In this document: one piece after another, positions 50,501-58,530 of the stretch
Numbering within the stretch: position 1 is the stretch's first letter
How the letters are laid out: each line of letters opens with the position of its first letter
Origin: Vairimorpha necatrix
Lineage: Eukaryota
Direction of reading: 5' to 3'
Assembly (NCBI GenBank): GCA_036630325.1
Contig: CP142734.1
Location: forward strand, 496,001-560,000
Length of the DNA stretch: 64,000 nt
Notes under the pieces: generated by a model
Database searches by the model: none
What the model was told of the DNA's origin: nothing
What the model saw: only the letters and a program-made list of their open reading frames with translations
Program-made: the position numbers and the translations under genes

Positions 50501-51653
50501 TCTATAGTTCCTGTTGACTCATGTTTTGTGTTGATTATGAGTGGGATATCGAGTTGTTCGACAATGTTAGGATTTTCTAAAATAACATAGTTTAAAGAGT
50601 TTTTATTTTCCCTGGGCTCTGAAGTCTTTCTCGTTGTATTTTTTAAATTTTGATTGGTATCGGGAACTACTGTCTTTTTGTAGTTGTTGAATTTTTCGTG
50701 TTTTACTTTGCTCATATTCGATCGATTTGTTTCATTGCTTTGCCCGCAGTCTCTCGTTGTATGTCCCAAAGTTTTGTGGACTTTACACCATTTTTTCATG
50801 AATCTTATACCTGAGGTGTTATTTAGCTTTCTCGGTATGTTAAATCTTGTTATTATGTTTTCTTCAATTCTTTTTAGGGCTGGTATGATTTCGGGTAGTG
50901 TTTCGAAGTTTTGTTCCTCGAGATATCTTACTGTTTCTAAGCCTAGTCCTCTGTATAGAGATTCCTTTGATCTTCGTTCATATTCTTTCATGCTACAGTT
51001 GGATACTTTACTGTAGATAGTTAATCGATTCATGATTTCGTTTACATAGTCGTCGAAGAAGATGTGGTCAGTCTGTTTGAGATTACTCAGTTCTGCTATT
51101 AAGTTCTCGACCCTTTTCTGTGAAAATACTTTGGACATGATGTATTTTTTGTTCTCTTCATAATCATCTTTCAATTTGGTTTTATCTATAATCTGATCTT
51201 CTATAAGATCGTATAAAAAGAGCCTTTTAGTTTCTTCATTCCATTGGTTCCTTTGGAAAATTTCTTCGATCTTTTTGAACCATCCTAGTAGATCGATTTC
51301 GAATATGTCGTTGATCAGTTCTACATTCTTAGTGATTCCTAGATCCACTTCACCTGTCTTAATTCTTATGGTGACTACTTTTGTTTCTTGAATTTTGGAG
51401 TTGTGCCCTGCGATTTCTCTTCCTCGCGTGGGTGGGAGTTCATTATATTTGTACTCTTTTATTGAATTCAATATGTCGTACCTCCTGCGGAAGTACAACT
51501 CCAATAAAGATAAGTTTTGAGTAAATAGTTTATTTCTCTTATCTTCCATACCCCTAAGTATGGAATTTTCTTTTATAGTTTTTTTTGTTTGTTTACAGGG
51601 TAAACAAATCAAGAAATGTCAAAAATGATATGTTTGACATGTGGGATACCACA
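47558..51653 (-). mobile_element. Intact Ty3/gypsy LTR retrotransposon with identical 180-bp LTRs
   Basis: LTRs 47558-47737 and 51474-51653 appear identical. TSD GGTAC, PPT GAAGAGGGTAGGA. Confidence 0.97.
47740..51549 (-). CDS. Gag-Pol polyprotein (gag, protease, RT, RNase H, integrase), single ORF
   Basis: CKVHKTLGHTTRDC knuckle, IDCGA protease, YIDD, CDASELGMGAVL, HHCC, DNGTQF, ERQNS and YKGPC. The first ATG (51549) lies inside the 5' LTR. Confidence 0.95.
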   Translation of the reverse strand: MEDKRNKLFTQNLSLLELYFRRRYDILNSIKEYKYNELPPTRGREIAGHNSKIQETKVVTIRIKTGEVDLGITKNVELINDIFEIDLLGWFKKIEEIFQRNQWNEETKRLFLYDLIEDQIIDKTKLKDDYEENKKYIMSKVFSQKRVENLIAELSNLKQTDHIFFDDYVNEIMNRLTIYSKVSNCSMKEYERRSKESLYRGLGLETVRYLEEQNFETLPEIIPALKRIEENIITRFNIPRKLNNTSGIRFMKKWCKVHKTLGHTTRDCGQSNETNRSNMSKVKHEKFNNYKKTVVPDTNQNLKNTTRKTSEPRENKNSLNYVILENPNIVEQLDIPLIINTKHESTGTIDCGAGLNFLKADLVEQWNITTRENKEIQVMFGNKSSEKTNTTIELDLKLKDQNETCKIEFYLLKNLPVNIILGRDFISRNDIILDFTRKKIIWNNATVNMKTNAEETEFEKPPGKILITKEEERLREIIDNYKREIKENCPINTDHVKLQVSNNDIKCKKINYAVPSNFKEDAIAEIQRLITADIIEECNERYTSPAFFKKKKNGKMRLIVDYREINNFVEDEVEIIPKMDDIIYQLGKSEVISKLDLTNGFNQLLLAKDSRKWTAFSIFGKTFRYKRLPFGLKNGPKAFQKIMNKILFGINNISVYIDDIIIATKDYESHLNTLKELFTRLKHYNVNVNFAKSEFCTKDTEILGTRIFNGKMYPLTKDCKLTENMKCHTKKDLQKIIGIFNWYRKYIPNLSLEILSLTEKLKGNEKKVKLTKEDNLIINKLVSTLKNNSHLVLPDYSKKFTLHCDASELGMGAVLSQEHGIILNISMKFNKTERNYTIVEKEYFAIVYAMDKCRNIVLGNYVEIYTDNRNCLFKSKISRRIERWDAMMIEHNYCIKQIAGENNSVADYLSRCFKIENVRHGNNLTNIIEQYVEKISDDKSGKENWERNKDDKIMIKNTEAENFLTKIHELAGHPGIVVLNKNLSPFYNIIGLKNKIIAITKNCRMCNLNKKEKVKTQKLQIESDKIYGTIAMDIFGPFELENFEHDTIHYKAYYLCITDVYSRISRVYLLYNITEDTIIKCIDKWIQEFQQPEKIIMDNGTQFTGEKLREKYEKSRGIKLVNTPIYHPQSNGMAERQNSIIAECLRINKLNNINDITNKINIKLNVNYKRTIGCSPFELEKQYSFFDPFRRQSNLKEPKYKSVPATLNQNNDKKLKINDKVFVRDFKAGKMDEQYKGPCTIKEVGKKGNWVKVEEGGNWIHIKDIKRRG

Positions 51654-52329
51654 GGTACCTTTAATATTTTTTTCAAGAAGAAATAAAAATTATTCCTCTT
51701 TTTTATATATTAATTTTCTAAAATTTTTTATGTTCATTTTAGGGGCGTAATTTTATTCCTTTTTTATTTTTCCCTTTTTTTATTTTTCCCCCTTTTTTTT
51801 ATTTTTTTAGGGGGGGGGGGGGGGTAACATCGCAATTTAACCTTAAAAGGTTAAATTGCGATGTTACTGGTCAAGAATGAAGGAACAGATAACTAAAACT
51901 TTAAAAATTCTGGAGTATTTAATATTAATAACAGAAAAACGACCCTTAGATGCAATTTTGTAACAACATTTAGAAATCGGCGAAAGTAGCTTTAGACATA
52001 ATGAATATTGGAGAAAAGAAAGATACGTACTATTAGGGATTGACTACTTTACGAGAAGAGTATGGAACGCAAAGATAGAAAATAAGAGAAGTGATGGTAT
52101 TATAAAAATTTTAGAAAATGTATAAATGAAGAAGGATTCCTTGATGATTTTTTATGGATAACTGTAAGGTATTTTTTTGTGAGAAATTTGTAATTTGGTG
52201 TAACGAAAACGGAATTATGCAACGGAAAGTAGGTCTAGAAGCTCATAGAGGCAATGGAAGAATAGAACGATGTATTAGAACAATAAGGGAATCCATGATC
52301 AAACAAAAAGAAGGGGAATCATAGGAAAA

Positions 52330-52402
52330 GGTGCCCTTGGCCCAGCGGTTGAAGGCAATACTTTCATTGAGCAGTGGCTAAGTTCGATTCCCAGGGGCAC
52401 CA
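52330..52402 (+). ncRNA. tRNA-derived head with Pol III A and B boxes (not a convincing functional tRNA)
   Basis: Acceptor-like GGTGCCC...GGGCACCA, A box TGGCCCAGCGG and B box GTTCGATTCC. Anticodon and T stems pair poorly. Confidence 0.7.
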
Positions 52403-54270: not shown

Positions 54271-54329
54271 ACATCAAATTATAATATTAAATTTTATAGC
54301 ATATGTTAACCATTTATTTATTAAGGGTT

Positions 54330-55397
54330 CTAAACCCTACATCCCCCCTCCAGACGGGTAGTCTCTCCATCTTCTAAACAACTCTTCCTTATCTCTTTCA
54401 AATCATAATGCCTCTTTTTAACAATTTTACCATCCAGTAGTCTCACAATATATGAATCATTTTCACTTATAGCTACGATCCTTCCGCGACCCGTGAATCT
54501 TCCCTTGTCTGTTTTCGCACGTGTACCTAAATTTTCTCTCCTAGCGATTCTTACCTCTTGGCCTACTGTAAATGTCTCTCTGTGTCTTCTCTTGAACCGA
54601 CCAGCATATTTTCCATTTTCATCATTTTCAATTATAACTTCAGCAGTTTGATCTCTCCACGCTTCCATCGGCGTACATTTTATTGCTGTATGTAGTGTAT
54701 TATTATATCCTTTGATTGCTCTTTCTATCTTTTCAGAAATATTCCCATCATTTTGCTTTATCAATGTCTCTCTTATAGTTCTGATGCATCTCTCGATTCT
54801 ACCATTACTCCTATGAGCTTCTAAGCCCATTTTCCTATGTTTAATATCATTAATACTACACCATTCTTTAAATCTATTACTTACAAACTCTTTTCCGTTG
54901 TCTGTCACATATTCCTCTGGAAATCCATCTTCCCTTATCCACTTTTGTAATACCTCTATAACTTCACTACTCTCTTTACATCTCAAATTCGAACCCCACA
55001 ACCTTCTAGTAAAGTAATCAATACCCAGTAACACATACCTATTCTCTCCACCTATGTCCATTAAATCCAACGCCACTTTCTCCAATTTCTTTCTAGTTAC
55101 TACGAAATCACATCCTCCTGTGTTTTTCCTATTGTTAATCCCACATATTTCACAATTCTTAATTACCTTATTAATATGATCTTTCATACCAGGCCAATAC
55201 CATCTTTGTTTAATGTTATAATAAGTGCCTTTGACACCTCTATGGTTTAACTCCTCATGTACTCTTGTTATTTCATGTTCTCTACTATCTAGGCTCAATA
55301 TCTCTTTCACCTCACCTGTTGAAAATTCCCAATACTGTTTACCGTCCTTTTCTTTAATATGTTTCTGCTTTTTTCCCAAAATTTGTTTTTCGATCAC
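54330..55397 (-). CDS. Integrase portion of the polyprotein
   Basis: HEELNH..CEIC, LDLMD, TDNGKEF and SNGRIER motifs. The stop lies inside the 3' LTR. Confidence 0.9.
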   Translation of the reverse strand: MIEKQILGKKQKHIKEKDGKQYWEFSTGEVKEILSLDSREHEITRVHEELNHRGVKGTYYNIKQRWYWPGMKDHINKVIKNCEICGINNRKNTGGCDFVVTRKKLEKVALDLMDIGGENRYVLLGIDYFTRRLWGSNLRCKESSEVIEVLQKWIREDGFPEEYVTDNGKEFVSNRFKEWCSINDIKHRKMGLEAHRSNGRIERCIRTIRETLIKQNDGNISEKIERAIKGYNNTLHTAIKCTPMEAWRDQTAEVIIENDENGKYAGRFKRRHRETFTVGQEVRIARRENLGTRAKTDKGRFTGRGRIVAISENDSYIVRLLDGKIVKKRHYDLKEIRKSCLEDGETTRLEGGCRV

Positions 55398-55441
55398 TTC
55401 TTTTCTCTTGTTGTCCTTTTCTTTTTGTTCATCCGAAACTT

Positions 55442-57202
55442 CTACCTATCATACTGCCTACTTAACGCATCTGCATCTGTCATCAACTCCCCTTTCACAT
55501 ACTCTATTGTAAAGTCAAACTCTTGTATCTGTTCTACCCATATGTTTATTCTGTTATTATTGAAGTATGGCTTATTTCTGATCTCTACTAATGCTTTATG
55601 ATCCGTCATCAAATGAAATTTCCTTCCTCTCAAATCACTTTCAAACTTCTTTATTCCAAAAAACACCGCCAACATCTCCTTCTCACTTATCGTATATCTT
55701 CGCTCGGTAGGAGTCAACATTTTCGATGCCCATTGTATCGGAATCCACTCACCCTCTTTATTTTCTTGTAATAGAATTGCTCCGATCCCCGTATCACACG
55801 CATCAGTTCTTACTCTAAATAGCTTTTTTCCGTCCGGAATCTTCAACTTTTTCATATCTCTCAAGCCTTGCTTCATATCCTCAAAAGCTCTTTCCATATC
55901 CTCCGTCCAATTCCACTTAACATCTTTCTTTAAAGCCTCAGTAAGCCTTACTGTTCTATACGCATAGTTGGGAATAAAGTCTCTAAACCAACCAGTTAGT
56001 CCTAAAAATCTTCTTAACTCTCTAACATTCTCAGGTTTTCTATATTCCAATGTCTCCTGCTTTTTAATCTCATTCGGTCCCATGACCTCCCCATTAATTG
56101 TTACTCCCAGCAACATCACCTCATCTTTTTTGTATTGTATCTTTGTTTGGTTTATTCTCAACCCACACTCTTTAAACTTCTTAATTACCCTCTCTAGTAA
56201 CTCGTCATGCACTCTTACGTCTTTACCATGAATAACTATATCATCCATATATACTTCCACGCCTTTACCTCTGAATTCATCTAAAACTCTGTTCATTACT
56301 CTCTGCATTATATGAGGCGAATTCTTAAACCCCATAACCATACTATTCCATTCGTATACTCGACCATTCACTTCAAATGCTGTTTTGTGCTTATGGTTCT
56401 CCTCAATCTCAATATGATAAAACCCTTCTTTTAAGTCGATAACCGTAAATACTTTTGACCCCTGTGTGGCTCTCAAAATATCCTTAATTAACGGTAGTGA
56501 GTACGGGTCCTTGTCAACCAAATCGTTTAACGCCATCAAATTGCTTACCAATCTTACGTCCCCATTTGGTTTTTCAAGTGCTCTTATTGGACTCCTCCAC
56601 TCACTTTTGGAACGTCTTATAACCCCTCTATTTTCCAACTTATTCAAGTACTCCTCAAATTTCACCCTAAGGTAGTATGGCACATTCTGCCCTCTTTTCA
56701 CAACCTTTTCACCTTGCTTAGTATTTATTGGACACTTCTCTCCTGTGAGATATTTTATCTTTTCTTCTGATTCTTTAAAAACTTCCGGATACTTTTCAAT
56801 TAAATTTTCTAACTTATTTACTGTTTTACATCTTTTCCCTTCATTGTTGATAATTGGTTCTTTCTGTAAAACTTGTTCCTTTTTAATTTTATATTTTTCC
56901 CTGCCAGCTACACTTTCATGACATTCTCTAGCGTAATGCCCTTCTTTCTTACATATAAAACATTTTGTAGTTTCTCTGATTTCTCTTCTTTTCCTATACA
57001 TCCTAAGATTTTCTTTTCTTTCTTCCCTAAACTCTTTCAACACTTTATCCATAATCTCTTTAATCATTTCTTGTCTTTCTTCTGACTCTCTCTCAAATTC
57101 TGCTCCTTTTTGTAAGCCTTTATAAATTTCCTCCCAACTGCTCCTTCCGTCACAAAAATTTTCAAAAATATAATCCTGCAAGTTCGCAGATGCCAAATCC
57201 AT
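55442..57202 (-). CDS. gag(NC)-RT-RNase H portion of the polyprotein, bounded by apparent 1-nt frameshifts
   Basis: CFICKKEGHYAREC, IDLKEGF, YMDD, TDACDTGIGAIL and DADALSR motifs. Confidence 0.9.
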   Translation of the reverse strand: MDLASANLQDYIFENFCDGRSSWEEIYKGLQKGAEFERESEERQEMIKEIMDKVLKEFREERKENLRMYRKRREIRETTKCFICKKEGHYARECHESVAGREKYKIKKEQVLQKEPIINNEGKRCKTVNKLENLIEKYPEVFKESEEKIKYLTGEKCPINTKQGEKVVKRGQNVPYYLRVKFEEYLNKLENRGVIRRSKSEWRSPIRALEKPNGDVRLVSNLMALNDLVDKDPYSLPLIKDILRATQGSKVFTVIDLKEGFYHIEIEENHKHKTAFEVNGRVYEWNSMVMGFKNSPHIMQRVMNRVLDEFRGKGVEVYMDDIVIHGKDVRVHDELLERVIKKFKECGLRINQTKIQYKKDEVMLLGVTINGEVMGPNEIKKQETLEYRKPENVRELRRFLGLTGWFRDFIPNYAYRTVRLTEALKKDVKWNWTEDMERAFEDMKQGLRDMKKLKIPDGKKLFRVRTDACDTGIGAILLQENKEGEWIPIQWASKMLTPTERRYTISEKEMLAVFFGIKKFESDLRGRKFHLMTDHKALVEIRNKPYFNNNRINIWVEQIQEFDFTIEYVKGELMTDADALSRQYDR

Positions 57203-58530
57203 AACATCTTCAACTCAACTTTCTCAACTTTCAATATTAACTTTAGTCTCTTATCTATCCTAATTGCCTCTTTCTCTAATGTTCTAGCCTCTTGACTACG
57301 GGACTCTCTTGTTTCCCTGTTCATCCTTGAGTTCGCCATGTTAACCATTTATTTATTAAGGGTTCTAAACCCTACAGTATATAACAATTGTTTTGTATGT
57401 TTGTGGATATTTTGCGATTGTTTGATAATATTAGAAATATGATGGAAAATCTGAATTTTCCATCCTTTTAAACCGAATAAAAGATTGGATCGTTACTAGT
57501 TCATATAAATTCAAACGAGCTTAAATTATAAAGTCCAAGACAATTTTCAATGGATATATTTTGAACATATTAACGAGAGTCAATTAAATCGACTAGTCTA
57601 GCCCAAGTAATTGAATTCATAGAAAAACTGGTCTAAGTTGGAAGGAAAATTTCGGGATAATACAAATTTTAGGCTATTGGCTGGTTTTAGCAAAATTTAA
57701 GTATATATACAATTGTAAGCTTTATCAAAATTAACAGGTTCAAAGATGAGTATTTGAAAAAGTTGACCTTAAAACCAGGTTTTTAACAAAATTAATTTGC
57801 TAGAGTTAATAAAAAGACTTTACGGATCTGTATTACGCTGAAGAATTAGAGTTTATGTGATAACAGAAGTTATGATCTTCGATTATGAATTTTATAATGT
57901 CAAACTCATATAGCACTATTATAAATATAAATGAGCCAATGTTTAATGTTTGTCTGTTATATAATGTTATGATGCTGAGAAATATAAATTGTATTAATGC
58001 CAATATGGTTGTGGCAAAAATGAAAATTTACCATGTTCCAAATTTCTTACGCTACGACATTGTCTCTTGTGAAAAGAAAGGAAGTATAGTTTAATTGATT
58101 CCCATCTTGTTTAAGATAAAATAAATTTTTAAACCGCTTTTGGTTCCTCAATGCTTTCTTTCTGTTCAAAACTAAAAATATGACATCAATAATTAATTTA
58201 CGAAATTTTCTATTCGAAAATAAGAGCTTCAGTAATTGCTATAAAATATTATTTAAAGGTTCTTAATGCGGTTAATGAAACAAATTTACAGATATGATTG
58301 TATATTTTTTTTTTTGAAAGAAAAAAATATTCTAAAATCATTTAATATTAAATAAATCGAAATTTGGCCGATTATTGATATTTGTTTGTTTATCGAAAAA
58401 AAACAGAATCAATAATTTAATGTATGTTATAGAAAGATGATACATTATGAATCGAAAAAAATTGCTTTGTTTTTATTGCGTCATAGTATCTTTATTTCTT
58501 AAAATATATTATAATTTTACCGTTCAACCC

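Follow-up and report, generated by a model that had tools for sequence, protein, structure and literature searches.

A self-complementary palindrome at the primer-site position of a microsporidian Ty3/gypsy element points to an undescribed start of reverse transcription

Long terminal repeat (LTR) retroelements are known to prime DNA synthesis by few routes, namely from the 3′ end of a transfer RNA (tRNA), from a half-tRNA, or by self-priming of the Tf1 type. The window analysed here, a stretch of 64,000 nucleotides from contig CP142734.1 of Vairimorpha necatrix, carries on its minus strand an intact and very compact Ty3/gypsy element of 4096 bp (47558-51653), in which the place of the primer-binding site is taken by a perfect palindrome. 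A palindrome at this place points to an undescribed start of reverse transcription. Our favoured but still tentative reading is that the palindrome itself is the primer-binding site and pairs with its own copy on a second genomic RNA, which would be the putative source of the primer. An earlier interpretation made from the letters alone (the sequence-only reading) had proposed tRNA-independent priming by fold-back, RNA dimer or LTR pairing. Independence from tRNA indeed appears likely and the RNA dimer fits best among these options, whereas LTR pairing is unsupported; the mechanism as such is one that we infer. The element and its palindrome are delimited as follows.

51474-51653, minus strand: 5′ LTR, 180 bp, TG..CA, with six stems
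47558-47737, minus strand: 3′ LTR, 180 bp, 100% identical to the 5′ LTR
51654-51658: upstream copy of the target-site duplication, GGTAC on the plus strand, GTACC in the sense of the element
47553-47557: downstream copy of the target-site duplication, 5 bp
47738-47754, minus strand: polypurine tract adjoining the 3′ LTR
47740-51618, minus strand: open frame from stop to stop, 1292 codons, spanning the whole interior
47740-51549, minus strand: gag-pol in a single frame from the first ATG, 1269 codons, the ATG lying at LTR position 105 (51549)
51460-51473, minus strand: perfect 14-bp palindrome TATTGAATTCAATA, the first 14 bases past the LTR
51461-51472, minus strand: inner 12-mer, the conserved unit of the 14-bp site, which lies within the codons for Gag Ile-Leu-Asn-Ser-Ile

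Contigs assembled from public runs X1-X3 link position 47557 to 51664 without the element and contain the duplicated five bases once; they are other copies of the repeated flank. Given the identity of the two LTRs, the 5-bp duplication and these empty sites, the insertion is genuine and recent. The LTR pair, the duplication and the domain order also bear out the intact gypsy element of the sequence-only reading. The gag-pol frame closes with a TAG inside the polypurine tract beside the 3′ LTR, and its Pfam hits, taken by residue position, are protease, reverse transcriptase (RT), RNase H, integrase zinc domain and integrase core. The protease hit is under the cut-off (24.4 vs 28.2 bits), and no chromodomain is found among the seven Pfam hits of the protein at E ≤ 0.001. 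The closest protein homologues measure 1237-1281 residues, are 34-45% identical from RT to integrase, and are annotated in Nosema granulosis, Vairimorpha necatrix, Dictyocoela and further microsporidia; the name “Tf2-6 polyprotein” on the Nosema homologues is the source's own label and not a placement. Homology at the Gag N-terminus extends into the portion encoded by the LTR, and a gag start inside the LTR is common to the group, an in-frame ATG being located 49-130 nt upstream of the LTR end in 7/7 elements. No other copy of the family occurs in the 64-kb window, a DNA search with the whole element as query retrieved no close copy in genome bin G001, and a query with the gag part against a word index gave no match. 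A scan of viral contigs returned two loci, both unrelated.

The observation that TGG is missing inside the 5′ LTR and a palindrome stands instead is correct: TATTGAATTCAATA directly follows the LTR, and no TGG is present in the ~90 nt past it. A tRNA-complementary TGG site at this place is customary in Ty3/gypsy elements, though it does not define them. The window is AT-rich and contains 21 perfect 14-bp palindromes, so that a single one is not rare and the argument consists of its position and its conservation. It is this exact placement, together with conservation in relatives, that exceeds chance. A TGG within the LTR (TGGAGTTGTAC.., LTR position 151 onward) was also considered as a hidden tRNA site and was rejected, since the duplication and the empty site place the LTR end 30 nt further on. 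The self-duplex of the palindrome is calculated at -13.4 kcal/mol in the studied element and at -11.8 to -22.4 kcal/mol in its relatives, and the predicted homodimer of the region from LTR position 95 to +80 pairs through the palindrome (-97.6 vs 2 × -42.9 kcal/mol).

Protein homology served to gather relatives, both from public collections of metagenomes and genomes and from bin G001 (38 gypsy matches), and the palindrome pattern NTGA-NN-TCAN was searched over all collected loci. Six relatives from two other sources share the same arrangement, which consists of an LTR with CA at its end, a single spacer base (T or A), and a perfect 12-mer with the halves NNTGAN and NTCANN, placed in the Gag N-terminal region in the codon register of the studied element. 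The sequence before the spacer ends in ..GACA, ..GGCA or ..GCCA and resembles the studied element's LTR end. The 12-mers are listed below.

Studied element: ATTGAATTCAAT
L103: ATTGAATTCAAT
L043: TTTGAATTCAAA
L002: AATGAATTCATT
L087: GATGAATTCATC
L080: GCTGATATCAGC
L081: TATGACGTCATA

Covariation was counted in an ungapped alignment of LTR end, spacer and palindrome from the seven elements, with six base pairs each. All 42 of the 42 cells are paired. Three pairs are invariant and form the TGA/TCA core; each of the other three occurs in three pair types, and changes of both partners are seen in 10 cells altogether. The covariation score of 0.667 compares with 0.129 in shuffles and was attained by 0/500 of them, and sliding the partners by one to three columns lowers pairing to 23-51%. 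The palindrome fills positions +2 to +13 in 7/7 elements. Comparison of this position across relatives, as suggested by the sequence-only reading, therefore yields a conserved palindrome with compensatory changes in seven elements. A set free of selection for the palindrome is given by the loci matched at the protein level as far as the N-terminus of Gag (L080, L081, L082, L087, L103 and L002); the LTR-gag junction is contained in 5/6, L082 beginning inside gag, and the palindrome is present in 5/5. In L080 the LTR end is proven, as three copies are alike up to ..CATGACA and diverge right after.

The coding content of the site indicates on what selection has acted. The encoded peptide is x-(Leu/Met)-(Asn/Ile/Thr)-Ser-x, in which Ser is TCA and Leu/Met is NTG in 7/7, and the middle codons AAT, ATA and ACG are exactly the A-N-N′ codons that preserve the central pairing. 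Such fixed codons, with middle codons that keep the centre paired, place the constraint on the bases rather than on the peptide. The third base of the preceding codon is likewise complementary to the second base of the following one in all seven, and an in-frame ATG lies inside the palindrome of L081, L087 and L002. Closer homologues available as proteins only, from Nosema granulosis, Vairimorpha necatrix, Dictyocoela, Hamiltosporidium and JGI contigs, carry an L-(N/S/I)-S motif where the N-terminus is present. All 22 of the 22 motif-bearing homologues could encode an in-register palindrome of at least 12 nt, compared with 3.0% of all 5-residue windows and, once Leu and Ser are held constant, 15%. 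The comparison is circular in part, as the regular expression used for selection demanded [LM]-x-S, and it bears on the peptide and not on the codons themselves. In a check based on BLAST, L-[N/S/I]-S was found in 6/7 alignments (E ≤ 0.13), the seventh, P0152, showing RDS and being perhaps misaligned.

Elements with a conventional TGG site are found outside this group, two of them in the window itself.

30271-33613, minus strand: gypsy element B, 57-bp LTRs (94.7% identical) followed by the TGG site TGGTGGAGAATATG, duplication GCAAT
54304-57376, minus strand: gypsy element C, 38-bp LTRs (TGTAGGG...GGTTAACA) followed by the TGG site TGGCGAACTCAAGG

RT and integrase are encoded in separate frames in element B and in two overlapping frames in element C, which also has a polypurine tract and a near-perfect 5-bp duplication (TATAC/TATGC). 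To our knowledge, 38 bp would rank among the shortest LTRs known. The RT of B and C is 28-29% identical to that of the studied element, and the RT of element C is very close in the tree to locus L096 of bin G001. Among nine distant loci with LTR pairs, both LTR ends were resolved in three (L075, L083 and L085), where TGG is located one or two bases past the LTR in 3/3, and were unresolvable in five; L049 probably has TGG near the LTR end as well. The RT-RNase H tree comprises 40 rows (IQ-TREE, LG+G4, short search, SH-aLRT support only, midpoint root) and omits L087, L043 and P0146, whose matches are short, and L103, which has no RT. A split with an SH-aLRT of 100 separates a side holding 4/4 rows with a palindrome verified in DNA, together with 13 proteins carrying the L-x-S motif, from the side with 6/6 elements that have a TGG site. 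Relatives with a normal TGG site, which the sequence-only reading named as grounds for refuting its proposal, are thus only distant gypsy lineages outside the clade of the studied element.

The closest precedent is the Conserved Hairpin Site of the fungal GalEa elements, which belong to Ty1/copia. GalEa elements are without a tRNA site, and their 5′ LTR is immediately followed by a conserved sequence of 9 bp, CTGATCAGT or CTAATTAGT, which is palindromic once the last A of the LTR is counted, and an inverse-complementary second copy 12-41 bp downstream gives a hairpin (PMC5445492). The authors report that they found no partner like that of Tf1 and that none of the described models applies (PMC5445492). 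The two systems have in common the position of the site, its palindromy, a TGA/TCA-like core and symmetric substitutions, as well as a single open reading frame, TG..CA LTRs and a 5-bp duplication. They differ in that GalEa is copia-type with a palindrome of 9-10 bp, whereas the studied element is gypsy-type by domain order with one of 12-14 bp, and its site, unlike that of GalEa, lies inside the gag reading frame. A downstream second copy of the GalEa kind is absent from the 80 nt downstream in the studied element and in the six relatives. The best pairing with these 80 nt amounts to -3.7 to -5.8 kcal/mol in 6/7 and to -9.5 kcal/mol in L080, at inconsistent distance. No description of the primer sites of microsporidian LTR elements was found in the literature searched, subscription papers being outside reach.

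It is established in retroelement biology that the first base copied from the primer sets the end of the LTR. Since the start position defines this end, reverse transcription must begin one base past the terminal CA, and, the transposition being genuine and recent, the last replication cycle was primed at the CA or one base after it (LTR+1). The palindrome is the only sequence there and conserves, beyond its TGA/TCA core, only self-complementarity, so that pairing between two RNAs is judged most likely. Two copies of the genomic RNA would pair through the palindrome, which would double as dimer-linkage site. The element's own RNase H, as in Tf1, would then probably cut one strand where the duplex ends on its 3′ side, and the freed 3′-OH would prime minus-strand DNA on the partner RNA. 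Pairing could also toggle the RNA between translation and packaging, as the site is within gag and includes an in-frame ATG in some relatives. The complete form of this scheme, that is, priming in trans by the partner RNA of the dimer, with one palindrome acting as dimer-linkage site, primer and primer-binding site within an RNA-RNA duplex cut by RNase H, is possible although rather doubtful. For Tf1, cleavage of an RNA duplex by RNase H with release of the primer is described in PMC7175516.

Several points weigh against a self-pairing primer-binding site. The primer itself is deduced from sequence, and the duplex is short and, in the studied element, AT-rich. A cut at the palindrome would sever that RNA, detaching the LTR leader from the remaining genome, so that one of the two partners might have to stay uncut, and a long RNA primer would complicate plus-strand transfer; we know of no precedent for either the severed partner RNA or the long RNA primer. 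A role in dimerisation or packaging alone would yield equal covariation. The seven elements come from only three sources (the window, bin G001 and one metagenome assembly), and L043 was noticed through the palindrome search, L103 having already been found by protein match. In L081, L087, L002, L043 and L103 the LTR end is placed not from two LTR copies but by a polypurine tract followed by TG (weak in L103), by similarity of LTR termini and by the shared ..CA ending.

The main rival, which we consider unlikely although it survives best, is that the palindrome serves only dimerisation, packaging or translational control, in the manner of a retroviral dimer-initiation site, and that some other primer acts with hardly any pairing, or none, adjacent to the LTR. 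Dimer-initiation palindromes of the HIV-1 type sit in a hairpin loop alongside a tRNA site, and their variants stay palindromic. Covariation that preserves self-complementarity is what a dimer site would be expected to show, the predicted dimer does form through the palindrome, and the in-frame ATG in three relatives would suit translational control. The leader is self-complementary in retroviruses too, with the difference that the palindrome studied here occupies the primer site itself. Priming would still have to occur no more than one or two bases from the LTR end, where the palindrome fills +2 to +13 in every element and no other candidate site is visible. Retroviral dimer sites are described as palindromes in the discussion of PMC5445492, and those known accompany the primer-binding site rather than replace it (PMC5445492).

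The palindrome could instead be a site read in DNA by a dimeric protein, either a host factor recognising TGA..TCA or a protein of the element. The invariant core TGA-NN-TCA is symmetric, and TGACGTCA in L081 is presumably the CRE consensus. Protein half-sites usually drift independently; here the flanking and central positions vary freely and yet always as complementary pairs, and the fixed one-base distance from the LTR end would be left unexplained, which makes a DNA-level role improbable.

Self-priming within one RNA, as in Tf1, would have a stretch of the LTR transcript fold onto the site after the LTR and be cut into a primer. The sequence-only reading had named TTTATTGGA (51500-51508, minus strand) as partner of TTCAATAAA, and a fold of the LTR plus 74 nt does pair LTR 146-154 with leader +8 to +16 around the hairpin at the end of U5, an arrangement resembling that of Tf1 as described in PMC7175516 and PMC4600332. 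The pairing of TTTATTGGA with TTCAATAAA amounts to -7.2 kcal/mol and is no better than chance: among 1000 shuffled LTRs 32.8% do at least as well, and so do 28.4% of 658 stretches of 180 nt drawn at random from the window; with LTR 95-180 alone, 11.6% of shuffles equal it. It is replaced in longer folds starting at LTR 86 and 95, both stretches are unpaired in the fold from LTR 100, and it begins 7 nt away from the LTR end. The candidate primer also lies downstream of the gag ATG, and a cut at this point would presumably remove the repeat region, on which the first strand transfer depends. Upstream partners computed in five relatives (L081 not included) reach -3.9 to -6.8 kcal/mol at best, none stronger, and a single-RNA model makes the self-complementarity of the site needless. 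Such self-priming has therefore little probability. Simple fold-back, another option of the sequence-only reading, fails as well, since the loopless palindrome would give a stem of merely 4-5 bp.

A chromodomain at the C-terminus of integrase is a chromovirus feature. The elements Tf1, Tf2 and Tj1 of the Tf1/sushi group are gypsy-type and tRNA-free and take the primer from their own RNA, according to PMC7175516, PMC4600332 and PMC6317226. The studied element, unlike this group, is without an above-chance LTR partner, its site is self-complementary, and no chromodomain was found in it. By the two features compared, LTR partner and chromodomain, it is outside the Tf1/sushi group.

Priming by a host tRNA fragment, like the half-tRNA of copia-type elements, or by another small host RNA is slightly less probable again. 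Half-tRNA priming exists in copia-type elements, and these also are without a TGG adjacent to the LTR (PMC6317226). Their sites correspond to an inner stretch of a single conserved tRNA, whereas the site of the studied clade differs by family and stays palindromic. The window contains a single tRNA-like sequence.

52330-52402, plus strand: tRNA-like sequence, the sole one found by ARAGORN in the window, 677 bp from the element

With the Rfam tRNA model, whose gathering score is 29, it reaches 14.7 bits, and no Rfam family attains its gathering score in the window. Its acceptor stem is perfect over 7 bp but the anticodon arm and the T arm are poor, and the sequence probably represents a pseudogene or a repeat derived from a tRNA. 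Complementarity of the site to internal tRNA fragments, named in the sequence-only reading as a point to check, gives a weak lead here: nucleotides 19-31 of the tRNA-like sequence pair with the first 13 bases of the leader at 11 positions, from the first base on, at -10.1 kcal/mol, which is matched by just 1.2% of 1608 random 73-nt pieces of the window. The match comes from one degenerate sequence below the gathering score, the window's sole candidate. Six different palindromes in seven elements would demand six host RNAs, each palindromic; the differences of the palindromes between families argue against a host tRNA. A contiguous, loopless, self-complementary stretch of 12-14 nt would also be ill-suited to the tRNA cloverleaf. 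Coincidence, in which the codons of a conserved Leu-Asn-Ser peptide in Gag would form a palindrome by accident, is very improbable, for although perfect 14-bp palindromes number 21 in the window and the motif is kept in homologues, the middle residue is Asn, Ile or Thr, chemically unlike and yet encoded by AAT, ATA or ACG with the centre paired, Ser is TCA in 7/7, and the flanking wobble bases covary.

The LTR itself is strongly folded. All six stems proposed in the sequence-only reading were located in its 180 nt (6/6), and the predicted RNA fold of -48.2 kcal/mol compares with -29.2 ± 3.8 kcal/mol in 200 dinucleotide shuffles (z -5.0; 0/200 as stable). Folding of the LTR plus leader, also proposed there, gives a z of -4.7. 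Strong folding is not family-wide, the z values of the six relatives being -3.6, -2.6, -2.5, -1.25, -0.9 and 0.05. The features of the LTR, all on the minus strand, are the following.

51640-51653, minus strand: stem 1, LTR 1-5/10-14
51617-51639, minus strand: stem 2, LTR 15-21/31-37
51588-51608, minus strand: stem 3, LTR 46-54/58-66
51570-51577, minus strand: TATA-like box, LTR 77-84, putative function
51544-51565, minus strand: stem 4, LTR 89-96/103-110
51509-51543, minus strand: stem 5, LTR 111-116/140-145
51529-51534, minus strand: AATAAA, possible poly(A) signal, LTR 120-125, putative function
51475-51499, minus strand: stem 6, the U5-end hairpin, LTR 155-179, 11 bp with a 3-nt loop, GTAC arms at 158 and 173

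A hairpin starting from LTR base 2 (here within 51640-51653) is present in 5/8 LTRs examined, including those of L080, L081, L103 and L120, with differing sequences (GUGG..CCAC, GUCGU..ACGAC, GUCGUGU..ACACGAC and GUGGUA..UACCAC); the LTR start of L120 matches that of the studied element over 16 bases. LTR 150-159 (TTGGAGTTGT, 51495-51504) and leader +70 to +79 (51395-51404) are perfect complements of 10 bases, and this candidate long-range pairing appears in the folds starting at LTR 86 and 95. A second peptide island, [IL]LE.YF, is conserved among closer homologues and corresponds to Gag LLELYF at 51487-51507. In position it overlaps with the TTTATTGGA motif and with the U5 hairpin in its 5′ arm, and its two Tyr codons coincide with the two GTAC arms; what looks like protein conservation may here too reflect a constraint on the RNA.

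The element is inserted in a repeated flank (46958-47557 and 51654-51900), whose depth is very high in run X2. An open frame at 46958-47656 has weak matches to IS1595-like and IS66 transposase families. At 51760-51866 a T/C-rich tract is followed by a run of 15 G and then by a perfect 42-nt hairpin at 51825-51866, with 18-bp arms (TAACATCGCAATTTAACC.. and its complement), which may be the end of the flanking transposon. Elsewhere in the window, 36113-36304 is a tandem array of 22-bp units resembling ATGGCAYTATARMGATTCAAAC.

With the gypsy elements of microsporidia, a second and unrelated lineage shows a solution like that of GalEa. New here are the compensatory changes across a clade, the fixed one-base distance from the LTR and the overlap with gag codons, which turn the palindrome into a testable class of mechanism. 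Annotation that scores primer sites of the tRNA type could miss or misjudge this clade. If priming in trans is true, DNA synthesis would be possible only once two genomes have paired, and pairing would also block translation where an in-frame ATG or early gag codons lie in the palindrome. The fungal GalEa copia elements may share this way of priming, which would then be an old and recurrent alternative to priming by tRNA.

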